Below, piece by piece: positions 1 to 11,300 of a stretch of 64,000 nucleotides of DNA; position 1 is the stretch's first letter, and each line of letters begins with the position of its first letter. The notes beneath the pieces are model-generated. The model saw nothing but the letters and a program-made list of their open reading frames with translations. It was not told where the DNA came from and made no database searches. The position numbers and the translations under genes are program-made. The stretch spans positions 120,389,593 through 120,453,592 of the forward strand of contig NC_090378.1 of assembly GCF_036365525.1 (NCBI RefSeq). Direction: 5' to 3'. The DNA is from Heterodontus francisci. Its lineage: Eukaryota.

Positions 1-2533
1 GGAGAGAGAAGAGCAAATGTGTCGGCAAATTACTGAAAAGTGCAGAAACAACAGGCCAGTAATAGGAGGGGATTTCAACTTTCCAAATATTAACTGGGAT
101 AAATTCAGTATAAAAGGTACAGAGGGCGCAGAATTCCTAAAATACATTCGGGAGAACTTTTCTCATCAGTAGAAAGACCAACAAGAGAAGATACAGTTCT
201 GGACTTAGTTTTCAGGAATGAATCTGGGCAGGTGGAAGGGGATCAATGTGAGAGTGTTTTAGTGGCAGTGATTATAATTCAGTTAGATTTAGAGCAGTTA
301 TAGAAAAGGATAAAGATGGACCAAGAGTAAAAGTTTTAAACTGGGGAAAGGCCAATTTTACTAAGCTGAGATGTGATTTGTCAGAATTAGACTGGAAACA
401 GCTACTTGAAGGTAAATCAGTGTTAGAGCAGTGGGAGGCATTCAAGGAGGAGATAGTGAGGGCTCAGAACAAACATGTTCCCACAAAGAAAAAGGGTGAG
501 ACTCCCAAATCTCCATTTACCGCAGATGGTAAAGAGCATACACAGTAGGATAAGGTACAAAAGGGAAACTTATATCGGATACTGAGATCTTGATACTGCA
601 GAAAACCTGGAGAAGTGTAGAGAGTTCAGGGGTGAAATTGAAAAGGAAATTAGGGAAACAAAGAGAGGACATGAAAAAATATGAGCTAGTAAAATCAAGG
701 AAAACCCAAAGATGTTTAATAAATACATAAAGAGCCGGAGAATCACTAAGAAAAGAGCGGGGTAAATTGGAGTCCAAAAACCTAACCTGTGTGTGGAGGT
801 GGAGGATGTGGACATGTTTCTGAATGAATACTTTGTGCCTTTTTTCACAGAGAGTGACAAAGCAGACATTGTAGTGAAGGAGGAGGAGTGTGAAATCTTG
901 GATGGGATAAACTTAGTGAGGGAGGAAATATTAAGGTGTTTCACATCCTTGAAAATGGATAAATCACCAGGCCCAGGTGAAATGTATCCCAGGCTGCAAA
1001 GGAAGCAATGGAAGAAATAGCGGAGGCTCTGATCCTCATTTTCCAATTCTCTCTGGTTAAAGGCATGGTACCTGAGGACTGGAGGACTGCTAATGTTCTA
1101 CTGTTGTTTAAAAAGGAAAGAATGGATGGACCAAGTAATTACAGATCAGTCAGCATAACCTCGGCAGTGGGAAAATTATTGGAAAAAGTTCTGAGAGACA
1201 GTAAAAACCATCACTTAGAGAAGCACGGGATTAATTCAGGACAGTCAGCATGGATTTGTTAAGGGAAGTTTGTGTCTGACTAACGATTACATTTCATGAG
1301 GAGGTTACAAGGAGTGTCAAAGTGGGCGTCATGTTTGAAAGAGTCTACATGGATTTTAGCAAGGCCTTTGATAAGATCCCACATGGCAGACTGGTCAGAA
1401 AGTTAAAAGCCCATCGGATCCAAGGAAAAGTGGGAAATTGGATCAAAAATTGAGTCAGTGACAGGAAGCAAAGTTTTATTGTCAACGGGTGTTTTTGTGA
1501 GTGGAAAGCTGTTTTCAGTGGGGTTCTGCAGGGCTCAGTACTGGGTCCACTGCTGATTATAGTGTCTTTCAATGATTTAGATTTAAATGGAAGGGGTATT
1601 AAGAAGTTTGCAGATGATACAAAAATAGGCCTTGCGGTTGATAATGAGGAAAAAGGCTGTAGACTGCAGGAAGATATCAATGGACTGGTCAGGTGGGCAG
1701 AAAAATAGCAAATGGAATTCAGTCCAGAGAAATGTGAGGTGATGCATTTGGGGAGGACAAACGAGGCAAAGGAATATCCAATAAATGGGATGATACTGAG
1801 AAGTGTAGAGGAACTGAGGGACATTGGAGTTCATGTCCACAGATCCCTGAAGGTAGCAGGACAGCTAGATAAGGTGGTTAAGAAGGCTTACGGGATGCTT
1901 GCCCTTATTCGCTGAGGCCTGGAGTATAAAGGTAAGGAGGTTATGCCAGAACTGTAGAAAACACTAGTTAGACCACAGCTAGAAAACTGTGTACAGTTCT
2001 GGTCACCACATTACAGGAAGGATGTGATCAAACAAGAGGGGGTACAGAGGAGATTTACGAGGATGTTACCAGGAATGGAGAATTTTACCTATGAGGAAAG
2101 ATAGGATCGGCTGGGATTGTTATCTCTGGAACAGAGGAGACTGAGGGGAGATTTAATTGAGGTGTATAAAATTATGAGGGGCCAAGATAGAGTGGATAGG
2201 AAGGACCTACTTCCCGCAGCAGAGAGGTCAATAACCCAGCGGCATAGATTTAAATTAATTGGTGGAAGGATGAGAGGTGAATTGAGGAGTAATTTTTTCA
2301 CCCAGAGGGTGTTGGGGGTCTGGAACTCACTGCCTGAAAGGGTGGTAGAGGCAGAAACTCTCATCACATTGAAAAAACACTTGGATATGCACTTGAGGTG
2401 CCGAAACCTACAGGGATATGGGAATAAGAGCTGGAAAGTGGGATTAGGTTTGTTAACTCATTTTCAGCTGGCATGGACACCATGGGCCGAATGGCCTCAT
2501 CTGCATTGTAAATCTTTCTATGTTTCTCTGTTT
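1..2533 (+). mobile_element. Decayed CR1-clade LINE: ORF2 (end of APE endonuclease plus reverse transcriptase) and 3' tail; 5' part lies outside the window
   Basis: Translated fragments carry CR1 ORF2 motifs: GGDFNFPNINW (~65-97), LDLVF, LNWGKANF, KSPGP, PEDWRTANV, NYRSVSITS, QHGF, DFSKAFDKIPH, QGSVLGPLL, KFADDTK (~1604-1624), LEQRRLRGDLIEVYKIM and FFTQRV..WNSLP. There are many stops and frameshifts. It ends in a TTTCTATGTTTCTCTG tail (~2515-2533) like the CR1 3' short repeat. Confidence 0.95.
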
Positions 2534-2965
2534 AAACGTCTCTAATGAAGGTTTATCACCAATTCAGCACTGAAATGGTTAATAGTAAGAGTGTTTAAAG
2601 ACTCAGTGTCCCTTTAAGACACTGTTAACCTGACAGGAAGCTCGAACTGTAGATCAGTCTATCTGGAGGAAACAGGCTCAGTGTTAACAAATCTCAGATC
2701 ACACACACATCCGGAGAACTTTCTCTGAGAACACTGGAGCAGACTTGTATCAACACATGTCAGAAAGGATTCATGTTGGGTGTCGGTGTAGAAGGTTTTC
2801 GATTTCATTTAAAACCTTCTTGTCCAACACTGGGGTGAGGTCAAGGGTGAGGTTATAATCAGTCTCAGTGTACTGGGGTCAGGCAGGGTCACTGCTCCAA
2901 ATGATCCCATGACCCCTGGAAGGTGAGAGTGTGCGCGAGGGTCAGGATCAGGAGCCTCCAAACTC

Positions 2966-3364
2966 AAAGAAAGACTTGCATTTCTATAGTGCCTGTCACC
3001 ACCTCAGGATGTCCCAAAGTGTTTTACGGCCAATTGTGCACAGCAAGATCCCAGACAGCTGAGTGATAATGAGCAGATAATCTGATTTTCAATGCTGTTG
3101 GTTGAGTGATAAACATTGTCCAGAACACCGAGGAGAACTCCCCTGCTCTTCTAATAGTGCAGTGGGATCCTTTACATTCACCTGAGAGGGCAGACGTCAG
3201 TTTGTCTCATCTGAAAGACAGCACCTCTGACAATGCAGCACTCCCTCAATACTGCACTGCAGTGTCAGCCTGGATTATGTGCTCCAGTCTCTGGAGTGGG
3301 ACTTGAAGCCACGACATTCTGTCTCAGAGGTGAGAGTGTTACCCACTGAGACAACACTAACACC
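2966..3364 (-). mobile_element. tRNA-derived SINE, near full length, resembling shark DeuSINE/SacSINE1-type elements
   Basis: The minus strand starts with degenerate Pol III A-box (TGTCTCAGTGGG) and B-box (GCTTCAAGTCC) motifs. It ends in an L2-like tail, CTTTGGGACATCCTGAGG...CTATAGAAATGCAAGTCTTTCTTT. It aligns by eye with a second copy at 3763-3966. The family name is from recognition, not a database search. Confidence 0.8.
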
Positions 3365-3762
3365 TCACAGTCGAATAGCCTGCCATTCTCAACCTCCCGG
3401 CTCACACTTGGAGGAATGAGGCCACTTGGGGAGGGTGGAGCTGTGCCCCAGCCAGAAATAGTGCCTTCAGGAGAGAGATGGAGAGCAGATTGTGGGAGAC
3501 CTGTAGTCTAGACGGGTGACATTTAACCAGTCGATGGCAGGTGCTGAGCCCTTTCCCCGTAAGTATTTTGTAAGTCCTTGGGGAAAGTGGGAGGGGCACT
3601 AGAGTAACACCTTTGTTGCTGCTGAAACTCTTGCTATCTGCTCAGTCATGTCTAATAAACACACAGACAAATCAGACAAACATTAGTCAGTTTTCTGTGG
3701 ATTTTCTGCTGGGTTCAGCTTTAATCAACAGGGTATTGTGGGAGCTCCCGGTTAATAAAAGG

Positions 3763-3966
3763 AAAAGAAAGACTTGTATTTATATCGAGTATTTCACACC
3801 TCAGGACCTCCCAAAGTCATTTACAGACAATGAAGGACTTGTTTAAAGAGCAGTCACTGTTGGAATGTAGGAAATGTGGCAGACAATTTGTGCACAGCAA
3901 GATCCCACAAACAGCAATGAGGTAAATGAACATTTTCAGTGACGTCGGTTCAGAGATAAATATCAG
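3763..3966 (-). mobile_element. Truncated second copy of the same SINE (3' half only)
   Basis: Shares AGAAAGACTTG, CACCTCAGGA, CCCAAAG, TGTGCACAGCAAGATCCCA and GATAAA blocks in the same order as 2966-3120. It stops exactly where the LTR-like element begins. Confidence 0.8.
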
Positions 3967-4918
3967 TGTCATGCAGGCCCCCACCTGCCAAGAATGAGGC
4001 ACATTAATTTCGCCATATGAACACTGCTTTTTAATCTGTTGCTGGAGTAAAGAAAGAACTTGTTTTTAAAAAACAGCACCAGGCCCTTGACTGGAAAGAC
4101 ATTGGCATAATAACAGATAGTACTTGGAAGGGACAAAAGACCATTTCCTGACAAATTCAATCCACAATGGACTTTTGATTACCAGACATTGAGGGTGGAG
4201 GAGCTCCCATTCCAGCTTGACTGCTAAGATGGCCGACTACACCATCGGACATGGTCAGACCAGTTTAGTCACATGACTAACTGGCTGTTGTAGTTTTTTG
4301 AATTTGAACTTGCCACAGAGAATTTGAACTCAGAAAGCTGTTTGCTCCTGGACTGAAAAGACTTTTCATGGCTGGCTTGCCACTGTCTCTCTCCCGTCGG
4401 CTTTCATCTCTCTCACCAGCTTCAGAAATCATTGAAGACATATGAACCGCAAGAGGGAAAAGTCTCCCACAGTGAACAAGGTTTAAGAAGAATACTGGGC
4501 CCCAATGAAAAGCAAGATCTACCGACAAGCAAGGACTCCAGTGAGCTCGAAGCACAGTAACAAAAACTCTCTTCAGAGATTGCCTCAAACCTCTGCACTT
4601 TATTTTTCTTCTGCTCTTTTCTGTCTCTATTTGCATGTGTGTATCGCATATGCATGCTAGCATGGGGCATGGCGTGTATCCGTACGCGTTAACTGAATTA
4701 GAGTTTTAGTTTAAGTTTTAATAAATTTCACCTTTCTTCTTTAAACCTAAGAAAACCTGTTTGTGCTCATTTCTTTGCCTCACAATTGGAAAGCGGTGAA
4801 CAAGGATTCACCGAGAAGGAGCTCAAAACACAGTTTGTTTCAAATTAAATCTTGTTACAGTAAGACCAGGTGAAGGCTGTGAAAGACCCCGAGAGACTTT
4901 CATCACCTGGTCAGAACA
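3967..4918 (+). mobile_element. Solo LTR-like element (~950 bp), probably Gypsy-type
   Basis: TGT...ACA termini (TGTCATG at 3967; CAGAACA ending at 4918), an AATAAA at 4720-4725, no coding capacity, and it truncates the neighbouring SINE. There is no clean target-site duplication. Orientation is inferred only from the AATAAA. Confidence 0.6.
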
Positions 4919-5455
4919 ATAGACCTGAACTCGACCCAAAGACAAAGCAACTGAGAGTTTCCCCAAAACCCTGGAACACTGAAGCCACTGGATTGGGAGC
5001 CCTGCTGTCACTGTTTGTCATCAGAACTTTGACAAGAGATAAGCAGGGAGTGGACAGAGCAGAGTTAAAGCTGGGGGAGGTGGGACCTTGGTGTCTCACT
5101 GTGCTGGTGCTGAGATCAGTTATATCAGAGACTGTGACAGAGACCCAGAGCTCACACTGAGACTGGCAGGAGTCTAGTGAGGGATTTCACTCCATGGAGC
5201 AGGAATGTGACCACAGTCTGCAAACGTCCAGATCTCCTCTACACACTCGGTAAAAGTTGGTTACTTATATCTTGCTGGTTAAAGGGGGAATGTAACTAAA
5301 GAAATACAGCTGGGCACCCTGTTATACACAGTGCTCTTCAATGAACCATTTCATTGACTGCAGCTCCTTTCTAACACCTTCCACTATTCAGCATTTGTGT
5401 TTTAGAAAGTTTCAGTATTTAAAGGATTAGTAACGGAGGATTGAGGTTTACTTAC

Positions 5456-5490
5456 TCAGTCTAAGCTTGGTTCCTTTACCGAACGTAAAC
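5456..5490 (-). CDS. IGKJ: Immunoglobulin light-chain joining (J) segment, kappa / shark type III (NS4)-like, unrearranged
   Basis: The minus strand reads G TTT ACG TTC GGT AAA GGA ACC AAG CTT AGA CTG A|GTAAGT, i.e. FTFGKGTKLRL plus a phase-1 base. It has the F-G-x-G-T-K-L J motif, a perfect donor at 5455-5450 and a 23-RSS directly abutting it. As I recall, FGKGTKLRL(S) is the shark kappa-type J sequence. TCR J segments use 12-RSS and IgH J segments have WGxG. Confidence 0.93.
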
Positions 5491-5529
5491 CACACTGACA
5501 GCTTCCAGTGCAGGGGCTGTACAATATCC
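5491..5529 (-). promoter_or_regulatory. Recombination signal sequence with 23-bp spacer (23-RSS) of the J segment
   Basis: Read on the + strand away from J: heptamer CACACTG at 5491-5497 (6/7 to CACAGTG, CAC intact), a spacer of exactly 23 bp at 5498-5520, and nonamer ACAATATCC at 5521-5529 (7/9 to ACAAAAACC). Confidence 0.9.
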
Positions 5530-6158
5530 TCTGCTCTCTGTTTCACTCACTCACTCTCACCCTCTCTCTGTCTTTCACTGTCACTGTGTCTCTCTCTCTG
5601 TCACTCTTTGCCTGTGTGTATGTGTGTCTCTGTCTCGCACACTCTCTCTATATATATCTATTTGTCTCTGTCTCTATGTGTGCTTCTGTCTGTCTCTGTC
5701 TGTGTGTGTCGTTCACAGTGTGTCACACTCTGTCTCTGCTACTTTGGGTTTCTCTCACATTCTGTCTCTCTCTCATTGTTTTCTCTCACTCTGTCTCTTT
5801 CACTCTCTCATTATGTCCCTCTCTCTCACTCCCTGTTACTCTGTCTCTGTCACACGCTCTCTCTCTCTCACACTCTCTCTCAATCTGTCTCTCTCTTTCT
5901 CTCACTCACTCTGTCTCTCTTTCTCAATCTCTCTCACTCCCTCACTCTGTCTCTCTTTTTCTCCCTCTCACTCTCTCTCTTTCTCTCTCTCTCACTCTCT
6001 CTCATTCAGTCTCACTCTGTCTCTCTTTTTCTCCCTCTCACTATCTCTCTCTTTCTCTCTCTCTCACTCTCTCACTTTGTCTCTCTTTCTCACTCTGTCT
6101 CTCTTTTTCTCCCTCTCACTCTCTCTCTCTCTCACTTTCTCTCTCTCTGTCTCTCACA
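5530..6158. repeat. Degenerate (CT)n/CTCA/CTGT polypyrimidine simple repeat
   Basis: Near-continuous CT, CTCA and CTGT units on the + strand. It produces the S/L-rich spurious ORFs at 5467-6345. Confidence 0.95.
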
Positions 6159-6162
6159 GACT

Positions 6163-6930
6163 GGGATGAATTCTCCCGGTGCCATGGAGACGGGGTTCTC
6201 ATTTGGAGGTTGGGCAGGACTGGGAAAAATACGACGAGCCGTGTCAACATGGCTCCCTGACACATTCCCGCCTCCGGGTTACTTTCCCATGGGTGTACTG
6301 GGAACCGGTCATCTGCTGGCTCCATGGAGATGGGCAGACAATTAGAGCAATGAAGTTCACATTTAGGGGCCATTTTGAGCCGGTGCTGGTATTTTACCAA
6401 CGTCGGAGCGGCCTCCCCACCCCCGAGTGTGGAGGCCGCCAGCTCAATGGAGGAGCCCTCCCGGCAGCAGGCCAGGGGACCATCGGAGACGGAGACTCTA
6501 TGTCCCAATGAGCTACAGGGATGAAAAGCTGCAGTCCCGCCTGTGAATAATCCTGTGGAGGAGTTTCCTAATCCTAACCCTCTTCAACCTGATGGCCCAA
6601 CTGGCTTCAGCCCTTTTTATTTTACTATTCCTCTGCAGGCAGCCGAGGGCATCTCCATGTTGAGGGGCCCTCACTCTCGCCTGCCTGTTTCAGCAGGGCC
6701 CACCTCTCCCGGTGGAGCTGCCAGCCTGACATCACTGTGGGCCCTCTGATTGGGCCTGCAGGCTCGGGAGCCTGACCGCCATCATTAATAGGACAGTGAG
6801 TGTGGAGGTGACCAATTAGGAGGCTGCCTCCCAGAAAGTTGCTCCGGCGAGTGCTGATGACATGGGCAGGCTCGGGACCCTCATATAGGCCAGACGTCAG
6901 AGTCCGAATGTCGACTGGGCCAACCAGCCA
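6163..6930. mobile_element. ~770-bp GC-rich non-coding insertion, probably a non-autonomous DNA transposon (MITE; PIF/Harbinger-like)
   Basis: Sharp compositional boundaries inside a CT tract that continues on both sides. It starts GGGATGAATT and ends ...AACCAGCCA, a weak terminal inverted similarity. There is an internal inverted pair GCGGCCTCC/GGAGGCCGC (~6408-6440). No clear TSD. Confidence 0.45.
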
Positions 6931-7220
6931 TCTCTCTCTCTCACGCTGTCACTCTTGTGCTCTTTCCCTCTGTCTATCTCACTATCTCCCTCTCTCTCTT
7001 TCTCTCACTCTCTCTCTCTCTCCCTCTCTCTATCTCACTCTCTTTCTCTCACTCTTTCTCTCTCTCTATCTGTCTCTCTCTAGCACTTTCTCTCTCTCTC
7101 TAACTGTCTCTCTTTATCTCACTCTCTCCCCCAATGTCTCTCTTTCTGTCATTCTCTCTCTCCCACTGTCTCTGTTTCTCTCTCTCTCCTGCTGTCTCTG
7201 TTTCACTCTCTCTCTCTGTC
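6931..7220. repeat. Degenerate (CT)n simple repeat, continuation of 5530-6158
   Basis: Same unit composition and strand bias as the tract to the left of the insertion. Confidence 0.93.
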
Positions 7221-7368
7221 TGAATTCCATGCTGCTGTGCTTGGGAAAGTTGGGAATTCTACTTGTCGATGATAAATCTTCCAGCTGCTCTTCCCACCAC
7301 ATCAGATGGAAAAGCCTGGAGCCACTCAATTCCTGGAAAATGAAAATCTCCCAGCAAACCGAGCTCAC

Positions 7369-7379
7369 CTGCCTGTGCC
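7369..7379 (-). other. Candidate 11-nt micro-exon
   Basis: The minus strand reads CCCCTCCCCTTTTTTCCAG|GGCACAGGCAG|GTGAGC: a strong polypyrimidine acceptor and a consensus donor 11 nt apart. No transcript evidence. Confidence 0.3.
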
Positions 7380-7472
7380 CTGGAAAAAAGGGGAGGGGTG
7401 TTTCTGTAAATGTGATGTTTCTGTTGCTGACTCTGCTCTTCCTCATGGACCATTTGAAAACAGTGAGTTTCA

Positions 7473-7910
7473 GAGTCAGTGGATCATGTCTACATGGAGT
7501 GGGAGAGGTTGTGGCCCCTGTTCCATTATTTGAACGGGCTGCTCCTCATCCTCTGGTTCTAATTCAGGCCCACGCTCCTGATCTTTGGCCACCCAGTGCA
7601 GAGGGGAGTGGGCAGGTTGGAGGCCCCTCCTCGTGGGTCTGCTCCTGGGCGTGGCCAAGGTGTCCATCCACAGGCCCGAGTTGGATGGGACCTGTGGGGG
7701 TGGTGGCACTGGCTGCCAGTCTCTCTACCATGGCATTGTCCCCACCCGGGTGGCCCTGGAGAAGGAGCAGGGGGTGTCTGCTGGGTCACTTGAGGCCTTC
7801 AGGCTGCAGTGGGCACCACAGGGACAGGAGTGTGTAGTGGATAGTGAAAATAACATCAGGCTTTAATTTGTTCAGTTTGCTTTCTATTTATGATTTCAGT
7901 TTTATTCATT
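7473..7910 (+). mobile_element. 5'-truncated Tx1/L1-clade LINE fragment (ORF2 C-terminus plus T-rich 3' end)
   Basis: Translates as ESVDHVYMEWERLWPLFHYL..LL..W.*F.PTLLIFGHPV (decayed end of a zinc-knuckle region), then after a frameshift LLVGLLLGVAKVSIHR...RVALEKEQ.VS.G.LEAFR.QWAP...ENNIRL* (stop 7864-7866). This is the pattern I recognise for Tx1-type ORF2 ends. A T-rich tail follows. Confidence 0.8.
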
Positions 7911-7925
7911 TCGACACATTTCACA

Positions 7926-8035
7926 ATTGGATTTTGATTGGTGAAAATTGTGTCATCCAGATTGTCCAATCAGATGAGAAGAAACCTGTTTCCATAGTAA
8001 CTGACCTGGGGTGTCTGACCTGGGATGGGGGGTCA
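7926..8035. promoter_or_regulatory. Promoter-like motif cluster: CCAAT boxes, RFX X-box and TGACCT half-sites
   Basis: ATTGG at 7926-7930, TGATTGG at 7935-7941, CCAATCAG at 7966-7973, GTTTCCATAGTAAC at 7988-8001 (matches the 14-bp X-box GTTNCCATRGNAAC), and TGACCTGGG twice (8002, 8016). Function is not shown. Confidence 0.4.
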
Positions 8036-8322
8036 ATAATAATGATCAATAATTAGTCTGTGCTCATGAAGCGACTCCACGAGAACCCAGAGAGAATCGA
8101 ATGAAGCAAAATGTCAAATCTCCAGAGCTGTGAGATTCTCACTGATGAAGACAGCAGCTCCTCGTCCTCTCTAAACTCCTCCATCCTTTCCCAATTCGTC
8201 ACACCGTTCAGGGGAATGTTTCTGTCAACACTCTCATCGACACATGTGGCAGCAATGCACAAAACAGCAAATATTTCCCAGATAGATAAGACAGGAGATT
8301 GAAGCAACTGTTTTAATACACC

Positions 8323-11300
8323 GTCTGTTTATTATATAATAAATATAACTGTGGATGTGTCAGTACAGGAGGTGGGACTATGTCCATTATTATATATTAT
8401 TTATAACTGTGGGATGTGTCAGTACAGGAGGTGGGACTGTGTGTCCATTATTATATATTATATATAACTGTAGGATGTGTCAGTACAGGAGGTGGGACTG
8501 TGTGTCCATTATTATATATTATATATAACTGTAGGATGTGTCAGTACAGGAGGTGGGACAGTGTGTCCATTATTATATATTATATATAACTGTGGGATGT
8601 GTCAGTCCAGGAGGTGGGACTGTGTGTCCATTATTCTTTATTATATATAACTGTGGAATGTGTCAGTGCAGGTTTTGGGACTGTGTGTCCATTATTATAT
8701 ATTATATATAACTGTGGGATGTGTCAGTACCGGAGGTGGGACAGTGTGTCCATTATTATATATTATATATAACTGTGGGATGTGTCAGTGCAGGAAGTGG
8801 GACAGTGTGTCCATTATTTTATATTATATATAACTGTGGGATGTGTCAGTCCAGGAGGTGGGACTGTGTGTCCATTATTATATATTATATATAACTGTGG
8901 GATGTGTCAGTACAGGAGGTGGGACTGTGTGTCCATTATTATATATTATATATAACTGTGGGATGTGTCAGTACAGGAGGTGGGACTGTGTGTCCATTAT
9001 TATATATTATATATAACTGTGGGATGTGTCAGTACAGGAGGTGGGACTGTGCGTCCATTATTATATATTATATATAACTGTGGGATGTGTCAGTACAGGA
9101 GGTGGGACTGTGTGTCCATTATTTTTTATTATATATAACTGTGGAATGTGTCAGTGCAGGTTTTGGGACTGTGTGTTCATTATTATATATTATATTTAAC
9201 TGTGGGATGTGTCAGTGCGGGAGGTGGGACTGTGTGTCCATTATTATATATTATATATATATGTGGAACGTTTCAGTCTAGGAGGTGGGACTGTGCGTCC
9301 ATTATTATATATTATATATAACTGTGGAACGTGTCAGTCGAGGAGGTGGGACTGTGCGTCCATTATTATATATTATATATAACTGTGGGATGTGTCACTG
9401 CGGGAAGTGGGACTGTGTGTCCATTATTATATATTATATATAACTGTGGGATGTGTCAGTACAGGAGGTGGGACTGTGTGTCCATTATTTTTTATTATAT
9501 ATAACTGTGGAATGTGTCAGTGCAGGTTTTGGGACTGTGTGTTCATTATTATATATTATATTTAACTGTGGGATGTGTCAGTGCGGGAGGTGGGACTGTG
9601 TGTCCATTATTATATATTATATATATATGTGGAACGTTTCAGTCTAGGAGGTGGGACTGTGCGTCCATTATTATATATTATATATAACTGTGGAACGTGT
9701 CAGTCGAGGAGGTGGGACTGTGCGCCCATTATTATATATTATATATAACTGTGGAACGTGTCAGTCGAGGAGGTGGGACTGTGCGTCCATTATTATATAT
9801 TATATATAACTGTGTAACGTGTCAGTCGAGGAGGTGGGACTGTGCGTCCATTATTATATATTATAAAAAACTGTGGGATGTGTCAGTACTGGAGGTGTGA
9901 CTGTGCGTCCATTATTATATATTATATATAACTGTAGGATGTGTTAGTACAGGACGTGGGACTGTGTGTCCATTATTATATATTATATATAACTGTTGGA
10001 TGTGTCCGTTCCGGAGGTGGGACTGTGTGACCATTATTATATATTATATATAACTGTGGGATGTGTCAGTACAGGAGGTGGGACTGTGTGTCCATTATTA
10101 TATATTATATATAACTGTGGGATGTGTCAGTGCAGGAGGTGGGACAGTGTGTCCATTATTATATATTATATATAACTGTAGGATGTGTTAGTACAGGACG
10201 TGGGACTGTGTGTCCATTATTATATATTATATATAACTGTTGGATGTGTCCGTTCCGGAGGTGGGACTGTGTGACCATTATTATATATTATATATAACTG
10301 TGGGACGTGTCAGTGCAGGAGGTGGGACAGTGTGTCCATTATTATATATTATATATAACTGTAGGATGTGTTAGTACAGGACGTGGTACTGTGTGTCCAT
10401 TATTATATATTATATATAACTGTTGGATGTGTCCGTTCCGGAGGTGGGACAGTGTGTCCATTATTATATATTATATATAACTGTAGGATGTGTTAGTACA
10501 GGACGTGGGACTGTGTGTCCATTATTATATATTATATATAACTGTGGAACGTGTCAGTCGAGGAGGTGGGACTGTGCGTTCATTATTATTTATTATATAT
10601 AACTGTGGGACGTGTCAGTGCAGGAGGTGGGACAGTGTGTCCATTATTATATATTATATATAACTGTAGGATGTGTTAGTACAGGACGTGGGACTGTGTG
10701 TCCATTATTATATATTATATATAACTGTTGGATGTGTCCGTTCCGGAGGTGGGACTGTGTGACCATTATTATATATTATATATAACTGTGGGATGTGTCA
10801 GTCGAGGAGGTGGGACTGTGTGTCCATTTTTATGTATTATATATAACTGTGGGATGTGTCAGTACCGGAGGTGGGACTGTGTGTCCATTATTTTATATTA
10901 TATATAACTGTGGGATGTGTCAGTACAGGAGGTGGGTCAGTGTGTCCATTATTATATATTATTTATAACTGTGGGATGTGTCAGTACAGGAGGTGGGACT
11001 GTGTGTCCATTATTATATATTATATATAATTGTGGGATGTGTCAGTCCAGGAGGTGGGACTGTGTGTCCATTATTTTAAATTATATATAACTGTGGGATG
11101 TGTCAGTGCAGGAGGTGGGACTGTGTGTCCATTATTATATATTATATATAACTGTGGGATGTGTCAGTACAGGAGGTGGGACTGTGTGTCCATTATTATA
11201 TATTATATATAACTGTGGGATGTGTCAGTACCGGAGGTGGGACAGTGTGTCCATTATTATATATTATATATAACTGTGGGATGTGTCAGTGCAGGAAGTG

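Follow-up and report, generated by a model that had tools for sequence, protein, structure and literature searches.

The window, by which we mean the whole stretch of 64,000 nucleotides of Heterodontus francisci DNA analysed here, carries near its left end an unrearranged immunoglobulin J segment that is read from right to left, and further to the right a 61-bp satellite that runs off its end. The mapped features are as follows.

1-5449, minus strand: putative J-C intron, at least 5.45 kb, with no C domain by Pfam or tblastn
~1-2550, plus strand: decayed LINE with RVT_1 (E 1e-15) and Exo_endo_phos_2 (E 2.5e-4) in the same frame, with frameshifts and stops
5455-5450, minus strand: phase-1 splice donor GTAAGT
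5490-5456, minus strand: germline unrearranged J-kappa of 35 nt, FTFGKGTKLRL plus a final A
5497-5491, minus strand: heptamer CAGTGTG of the J recombination signal sequence (RSS), one mismatch, CAC kept
5520-5498, minus strand: RSS spacer, 23 bp
5529-5521, minus strand: J-RSS nonamer GGATATTGT, non-canonical, with two A-to-T changes as read on the plus strand
5530-6155, minus strand: GA-rich J-proximal part of the spacer (TRF 5761-6155; contig of sequencing run X7; read-through of zebra-shark model P0002)
7479-7884, minus strand: single-copy spacer sequence common to other shark kappa loci (matches to P0005, P0033 and P0014)
8327/8329-64000, minus strand (J direction): 61-bp satellite, about 922 units, uninterrupted, running off the right end of the window

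The J segment, its 23-spacer RSS and its donor lie on the minus strand at exactly the place given by the initial annotation, 5529-5450, and the absence of the J from the open reading frame track is expected for an exon of 35 nt. Counted against the RSS consensus, the J signal has three mismatches (one in the heptamer, two in the nonamer) and is the top-scoring RSS in 1-8330. When 1-8328 was dinucleotide-shuffled 200 times, an RSS of equal quality arose by chance in 19 shuffles and the composite of RSS, FGxG and donor in none. The position of a 23-spacer RSS 5' of the J, with CAC kept, agrees with the 12/23 arrangement that is called kappa-type in PMC5985310. The FGxG J itself is of kappa sequence and ends in A ahead of the GT donor, as described for the nurse-shark NS4 J (Lee et al. 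2000; PMC2193156). In itself the J is ordinary, a new member of a well-known family.

Read through as protein, the deviant nonamer yields the peptide AEDIVQ, which is found in one of 123 fetched proteins, the H. francisci model P0001, and the canonical-looking read-through EV[FY]VQPL is found in seven models of other sharks. The nonamer would thus by itself suggest Heterodontus as the source of the J. The loss of two A residues from the J nonamer, in the window as in P0001, is likely a genus-level weakening of the kappa J-RSS.

Several other elements were recorded to the left of the J and between the J and the satellite. The LINE is presumably of CR1 type, judged by its motifs, and the segments 2966-3400 and 3764-3831, within which two 69-bp pieces are 80% alike, look SINE-like. 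A minus-strand piece of ~890 bp (~3968-4858) with TG...CA bounds looks by eye like a solo LTR; no target-site duplication was seen, and the window's single octamer match (4629-4636) lies inside this piece. A PstI site is located 3' of the J at 5358-5363. Between two GA-rich tracts, a GC-rich block (~6155-6930) matches none of the fetched proteins and is possibly an inserted repeat. The single-copy part of the spacer is matched by proteins of catshark (P0005, 7854-7771, E 7e-7), sawshark (P0033, 7604-7479, E 1e-10) and epaulette shark (P0014, 7841-7788, E 0.004), with 5530-8400 as the database in each case; the matches at 7.5-7.9 kb could be a common shark repeat. CCAAT/ATTGG boxes cluster on the minus strand at ~7930-7990, 400 bp off the array end, where they could serve as a promoter of J-C germline transcripts. 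Rfam gave no match on 1-9000.

Isotype and use of the J segment

All 18 positions of JL5, the NS4 J primer given in PMC2193156, agree with 5466-5483 (0 mismatches), and no match with three mismatches or fewer arose in 100 shuffles. NS4, type III and kappa are names of one isotype (PMC5985310, PMC5192425, PMC4279169). When longer proteins were searched with the J frame, two of five candidates matched, the H. francisci kappa model P0001 and a zebra-shark model; P0001 is the better match, with 27 of 28 amino acids of RSS and J frame identical. All 11 residues of the J recur in 3 of the 123 fetched proteins, every one of them an H. francisci kappa, and P0122 is identical over PLHW...LRLS. A PDB search with the 26-aa J frame returned weak antibody light-chain matches alone (best E 0.21), which do not discriminate, and a metagenome scan for the J had no matches.

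Contigs of four coded sequencing runs (X1, X2, X7 and X8) were placed on 4870-5740. X1 and X2 represent one organism, A, and X7, of unknown kind, comes from another organism and study; X1 is putatively RNA. The contigs of X8 gave no cover over the J. Among the ends listed, loose ends at the donor (5455) occur in at least 35 contigs of X1 and at least 11 of X7, with an agreement of 1.0, and read by eye they spell a C start that is present in 5 of the 123 fetched proteins, all H. francisci kappa. At the opposite edge of the J (5486-5492), several kinds of V CDR3 ends, YYC-Q/H, were seen among the ends listed. Since V ends and C starts adjoin the two edges of the J, segments of this sequence have been rearranged and spliced to C-kappa; the splicing is seen for the J sequence in two organisms and would extend to the copy in the window. 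In a C-domain tree, used only to separate the lambda-like rows (the root of the kappa group is open and branches are long), the spliced C domains group with other elasmobranch kappa-named C domains, outside a nine-row lambda-like group (93/96).

The J is almost certainly kappa. The earlier suggestion of a kappa-type J of a shark light chain cluster, read right to left, is borne out jointly by primer JL5, by P0001 and by the C-kappa splice partner, and the comparison of J plus RSS with shark light chains that it called for leads to an H. francisci kappa model. That the J belongs instead to a T-cell receptor (TCR), lambda or sigma locus, or is a chance match, is barely conceivable. FGKGTKL is found in shark lambda J as well (P0082, 10 of 11 against this J), and the compared protein set held no TCR or sigma proteins. 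Nevertheless, all the 11/11 matches are kappa-named, the composite J signal is absent from all 200 shuffles, and lambda is reported in reviews to be germline-joined in all species studied, whereas this J is unrearranged with an RSS and has a kappa C as its partner in place of a lambda C. Judged by splice partner, the same C-kappa speaks against a TCR, sigma or sigma-2 J.

The contigs also bear on which copy is expressed. At position 5463 the window has A; the one DNA contig of X2 over the J has G, and so does 1.19 of the 1.48 million of summed X1 depth. The X2 contig differs from the window at 4921, 4959 and 5370 as well, and because of these differences and of the other base in most of the X1 J depth, the transcripts may derive from paralogues. 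The X1 contig depth, which is not an expression measure, is 6.5-9.2e5 in the J bins versus 38-871 in the adjacent flanks. X1 contigs over 5464-5740 cross the unrearranged J-RSS in two variants, with depths of 275 and 282; they represent either sterile germline transcripts or DNA carry-over, from either two alleles or two copy groups. One X7 contig covers the same 5464-5740 with eight differences. The deviant J nonamer can probably be used, given that the DNA contig of organism A shows no other type and that rearranged kappa contigs are present in the second run of this organism, though contigs drop rare variants. For this latter reason, and with several named clusters in existence, we dropped the idea, prompted by the one contig over 5470-5529, of a single J in organism A.

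The satellite and its origin

The array contains 922 unit anchors, and their 921 spacings all measure 54-63 bp, so it is uninterrupted. There are 312 distinct units among 921, with a mean difference of 4.9% from the modal unit, and identical blocks extend to 53 units. Units with a 7-bp deletion (82 in number) are grouped in blocks, and higher-order repeats are present at lags of 53, 104, 107 and 160 units. On the plus strand the array has 15,668 G versus 5,828 C and wholly lacks AGCT. The metagenome scan for the 61-bp unit gave no matches.

CAC occurs 4,411 times in the array; the minus strand has 4,390 of these sites and the plus strand 21, and hence nearly all of them face the J-RSS. Scored as 23-RSS, 12 array sites have three mismatches and 370 have four; scored as 12-RSS, the best has five. 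The modal unit reaches four mismatches at best as an RSS, a value equalled by 42 of 5000 dinucleotide shuffles (P about 0.008, post hoc), and its nonamer has no A tract. On these grounds an array of true RSSs is considered doubtful; with five mismatches at best as 12-RSS, the satellite units are expected to be poor partners for the J-RSS, and their likeness to a 23-RSS is loose.

The unit itself resembles the sequence that follows the 12-RSS of V. Model P0001 reads from V through the 12-RSS into a peptide (residues 128-140) that shares 12 of 13 residues with the translated unit, and against the array this peptide gives 916 HSPs, all on the minus strand, the direction of the J. A fixed-register test was applied to 35 shark kappa-like proteins at an offset of 11 codons after the heptamer. 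The RSS read-through pattern was fitted by 13 of them, and in 8 of the 13 the segment at this offset beat every other 13-mer of its own protein, with identities of 5-11 of 13 and in two reading frames: H. francisci (11), zebra shark S. tigrinum (7), basking shark C. maximus (9 and 5), cloudy catshark S. torazame (7, 11 and 7) and bamboo shark C. punctatum (10). The remainder consists of two weak cases (5/13 and 4/13) and three uninformative ones, of which one splices out first, one ends and one is a false pattern match in a cDNA. That one offset serves two reading frames speaks against a hidden intron.

In catshark, models P0005 and P0123 contain a 57-nt stretch, the length of one unit, that closes with YIIN and is followed by peptides that match 7883-7866 and 7854-7771. 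The last, J-proximal unit of the array also ends in YIIN, at 8338-8327, and KQTEQI follows an AG ending at 7884 where P0005 has KETEQI. The catshark IIN...KETEQI fits the window in two ways, either with a splice joining 8321 to 7884 or as a contiguous stretch near 7894, and the one-unit reading depends on the 57-nt length. The flank evidence as a whole consists of proteins from automatic gene models rather than DNA, in which introns are invisible, and P0001 gives no array length. From these comparisons, the order of unit, single-copy block, GA-rich block and J-RSS would be that of the shark kappa V-J spacer, and the unit very probably derives from the flank of the V-RSS. The array is likely to have arisen by in-place amplification, at least 920-fold, of the ~60 bp with which the V-J spacer begins.

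Organization of the kappa cluster

Neither a V nor a C was found in the window by tblastn with two shark V domains (best E 4.4-4.7) and two shark C domains (best E 0.33-2.3), and a six-frame Pfam scan of 1-8330 detected LINE domains only, with no V or C. In 5530-8330 no V remnants were detected by Pfam, by tblastn, by primers NS4A/NSL at three mismatches or fewer, or by a 12-RSS scan; the primer scan had one 3-mismatch match at 7962, without V context. No candidate was obtained among V-only models (30-151 aa) reading into the 61-bp unit, and a search of 1.84 billion representatives gave one match, a toad V with RSS read-through and without the unit. With neither element found in the window, the V is placed more than 58,471 bp from the J and the C more than 5.45 kb away, presumably to the left of the window. 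A compact minicluster, with V about 0.5 kb from J, is thus not what is seen here: the V-J distance is 502-524 bp in nurse-shark NS4 (PMC2193156) and the VL-JL distance 250-500 bp in a review (PMC5192425), as against at least 58,471 bp without V.

Two claims of the initial annotation need qualification in this respect. The J is indeed the only exon in the window, but to call it the sole confident host-gene element overlooks that most of the remaining window is likely the V-J spacer of the same gene. The proposed cluster with a C exon to the left agrees with the splicing of J segments of this sequence to C-kappa in contigs, but the 5.45 kb available on that side hold no C.

We consider it probable that the window contains a germline shark kappa J whose 58.5-kb V-free spacer was inflated by the in-place amplified V-RSS-flank unit, with the V likely beyond 64000. 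By its sequence context, the far end of the array is a good candidate place for the V, and V and C are presumably linked to the J in cis. Under the 12/23 rule, RAG pairs a 23-RSS with a 12-RSS. At this locus it would pair the J 23-RSS with a convergent V 12-RSS beyond the array, the whole spacer with its satellite would be lost in a circle that measures 58 kb or more, and the joined VJ would be spliced from the GT at 5455 to a C-kappa left of the window. Growth of the array most likely proceeds by unequal crossing-over, which fits the identical blocks of units, and the array may be tolerated because B cells excise it and other kappa clusters provide backup. It is predicted to reduce, not abolish, the use of the cluster; judged from sequence, the chances that the window copy rearranges in vivo are about even.

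An orphan or silenced cluster would have an intact J, and perhaps C, with the V lost or out of reach and the expressed kappa supplied by paralogues. Such a cluster would agree with 58.5 kb lacking a V, with the G in place of the window's A at 5463 in most J contigs, with the backup offered by kappa models of H. francisci, of which one chromosome has at least four, and with the description of nurse-shark IgH, in which rearrangement is reported to take place over ~400 bp and long-distance events to be absent (PMC2435157). We nevertheless regard it as unlikely, given that the unit appears to be a V-RSS flank and an H. francisci model has a V directly ahead of it, that J, RSS and donor are all intact, and that about one fifth of the summed X1 depth at 5463 is not G, the last being a weak point as it concerns contig depths.

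Two further alternatives are less probable. The array could be real but inflated in length by the assembly, or wrongly joined to the J flank; identical blocks of 53, 43 and 38 units are a possible product of a mis-resolved repeat. Copying of a short array, however, is at odds with the 312 distinct units spread along the whole length, the junction at 8327 runs into sequence that is found after the unit in catshark models, and the window has no N, all of which makes an assembly error improbable. A translocon-like kappa locus, in which many remote Vs share one or a few J-C units as in sterlet and gar, has precedents in the translocon-type kappa of non-teleost fishes (PMC5985310), and it would be in line with the one X2 DNA contig on 5470-5529 and with the several V ends that join the J. 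It is very improbable here, as H. francisci has a chromosome with four V-J-C models that are unlike one another in V as well as J (W-Y-T, W-F-T, W-L-T), the single-contig argument is weakened by the dropping of rare variants from contigs, and two smaller runs share 0.72 of words, as does the largest run, which fits several copies.

Implications and comparison with known systems

Shark immunoglobulin clusters are described as compact cassettes in which rearrangement spans a few hundred bases, so that locus contraction is bypassed (PMC2435157, PMC5192425). The spacer described here is unlike the published descriptions of shark miniclusters, and the literature search, which reached few subscription papers, brought up no account of a satellite between a shark V and its J. 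A kappa cluster with V and J at least 58 kb apart would break the minicluster size rule more than 100-fold, and surveys by PCR or lambda clones would miss such clusters. It would also be a case of a satellite arising within an immune gene from a flank that was single-copy.

As a natural experiment, such a locus can show whether cluster choice and exclusion in sharks are limited by distance, and it can also set RAG scanning against diffusion, since a CAC-rich array is convergent with a J nonamer that looks weakened. Scanning RAG in mouse makes low-level use of convergent CAC sites (bioRxiv 2020.06.30.181222), and mouse kappa joins by diffusion through strong RSSs (PMC11153149). We tentatively suggest, as a possibility with somewhat less than an even chance, that in bullhead-shark kappa clusters V and J are split by a tens-of-kb satellite of V-RSS flank, with ~4,400 CACs facing the J-RSS, and that the clusters still rearrange. 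If true, this would imply long-range V-J synapsis, by scanning or contraction, in a kind of shark locus that was believed to do without it, the minicluster, and the length of the array would act as a heritable dial on the choice of cluster by B cells.

Type III genes of the horned shark were reportedly described by Rast in 1994. Among known systems, the nurse-shark NS4 split genes S1, S10 and S31 (PMC2193156) share with the window the J primer site, the final A of the J and a PstI site 3' of the J. NS4 is an unrearranged V-J-C cluster with classical RSSs, and the J described here is likewise unrearranged with an RSS. The NS4 spacer of 502-524 bp contrasts with at least 58,471 bp here, and the SacI site in the nurse-shark NS4 J-RSS is absent from the J-RSS of the window. 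In H. francisci itself, the type III/kappa proteins XP_067894202.1, XP_067894095.1, XP_067894067.1, XP_067894199.1 and WKK30311.1 match the J at 10-11 of 11 residues, and their C start is that of the RNA loose ends. XP_067894202.1 in addition has the same deviant nonamer read-through as the window and reads from the V-RSS into the unit; it differs in having Y where the window J has F.

Kappa models of catshark, basking, bamboo, zebra and epaulette sharks (P0002-P0123) carry the unit motif behind the V 12-RSS, at an identical offset, and have pieces of the spacer at 7.5-7.9 kb and the GA-rich J flank in common with the window. The catshark kappa models show one unit's length and no array, and their J nonamer reads canonical, whereas that of the window is deviant. 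A further parallel is provided by the cryptic-RSS repeats of Cowell et al. (2003; PMC2193808), a repeat family that, like the satellite, is rich in CAC-containing RSS-like sites. Those repeats came from scans of the mouse and human genomes, whereas the repeat of the window is located inside one V-J interval.
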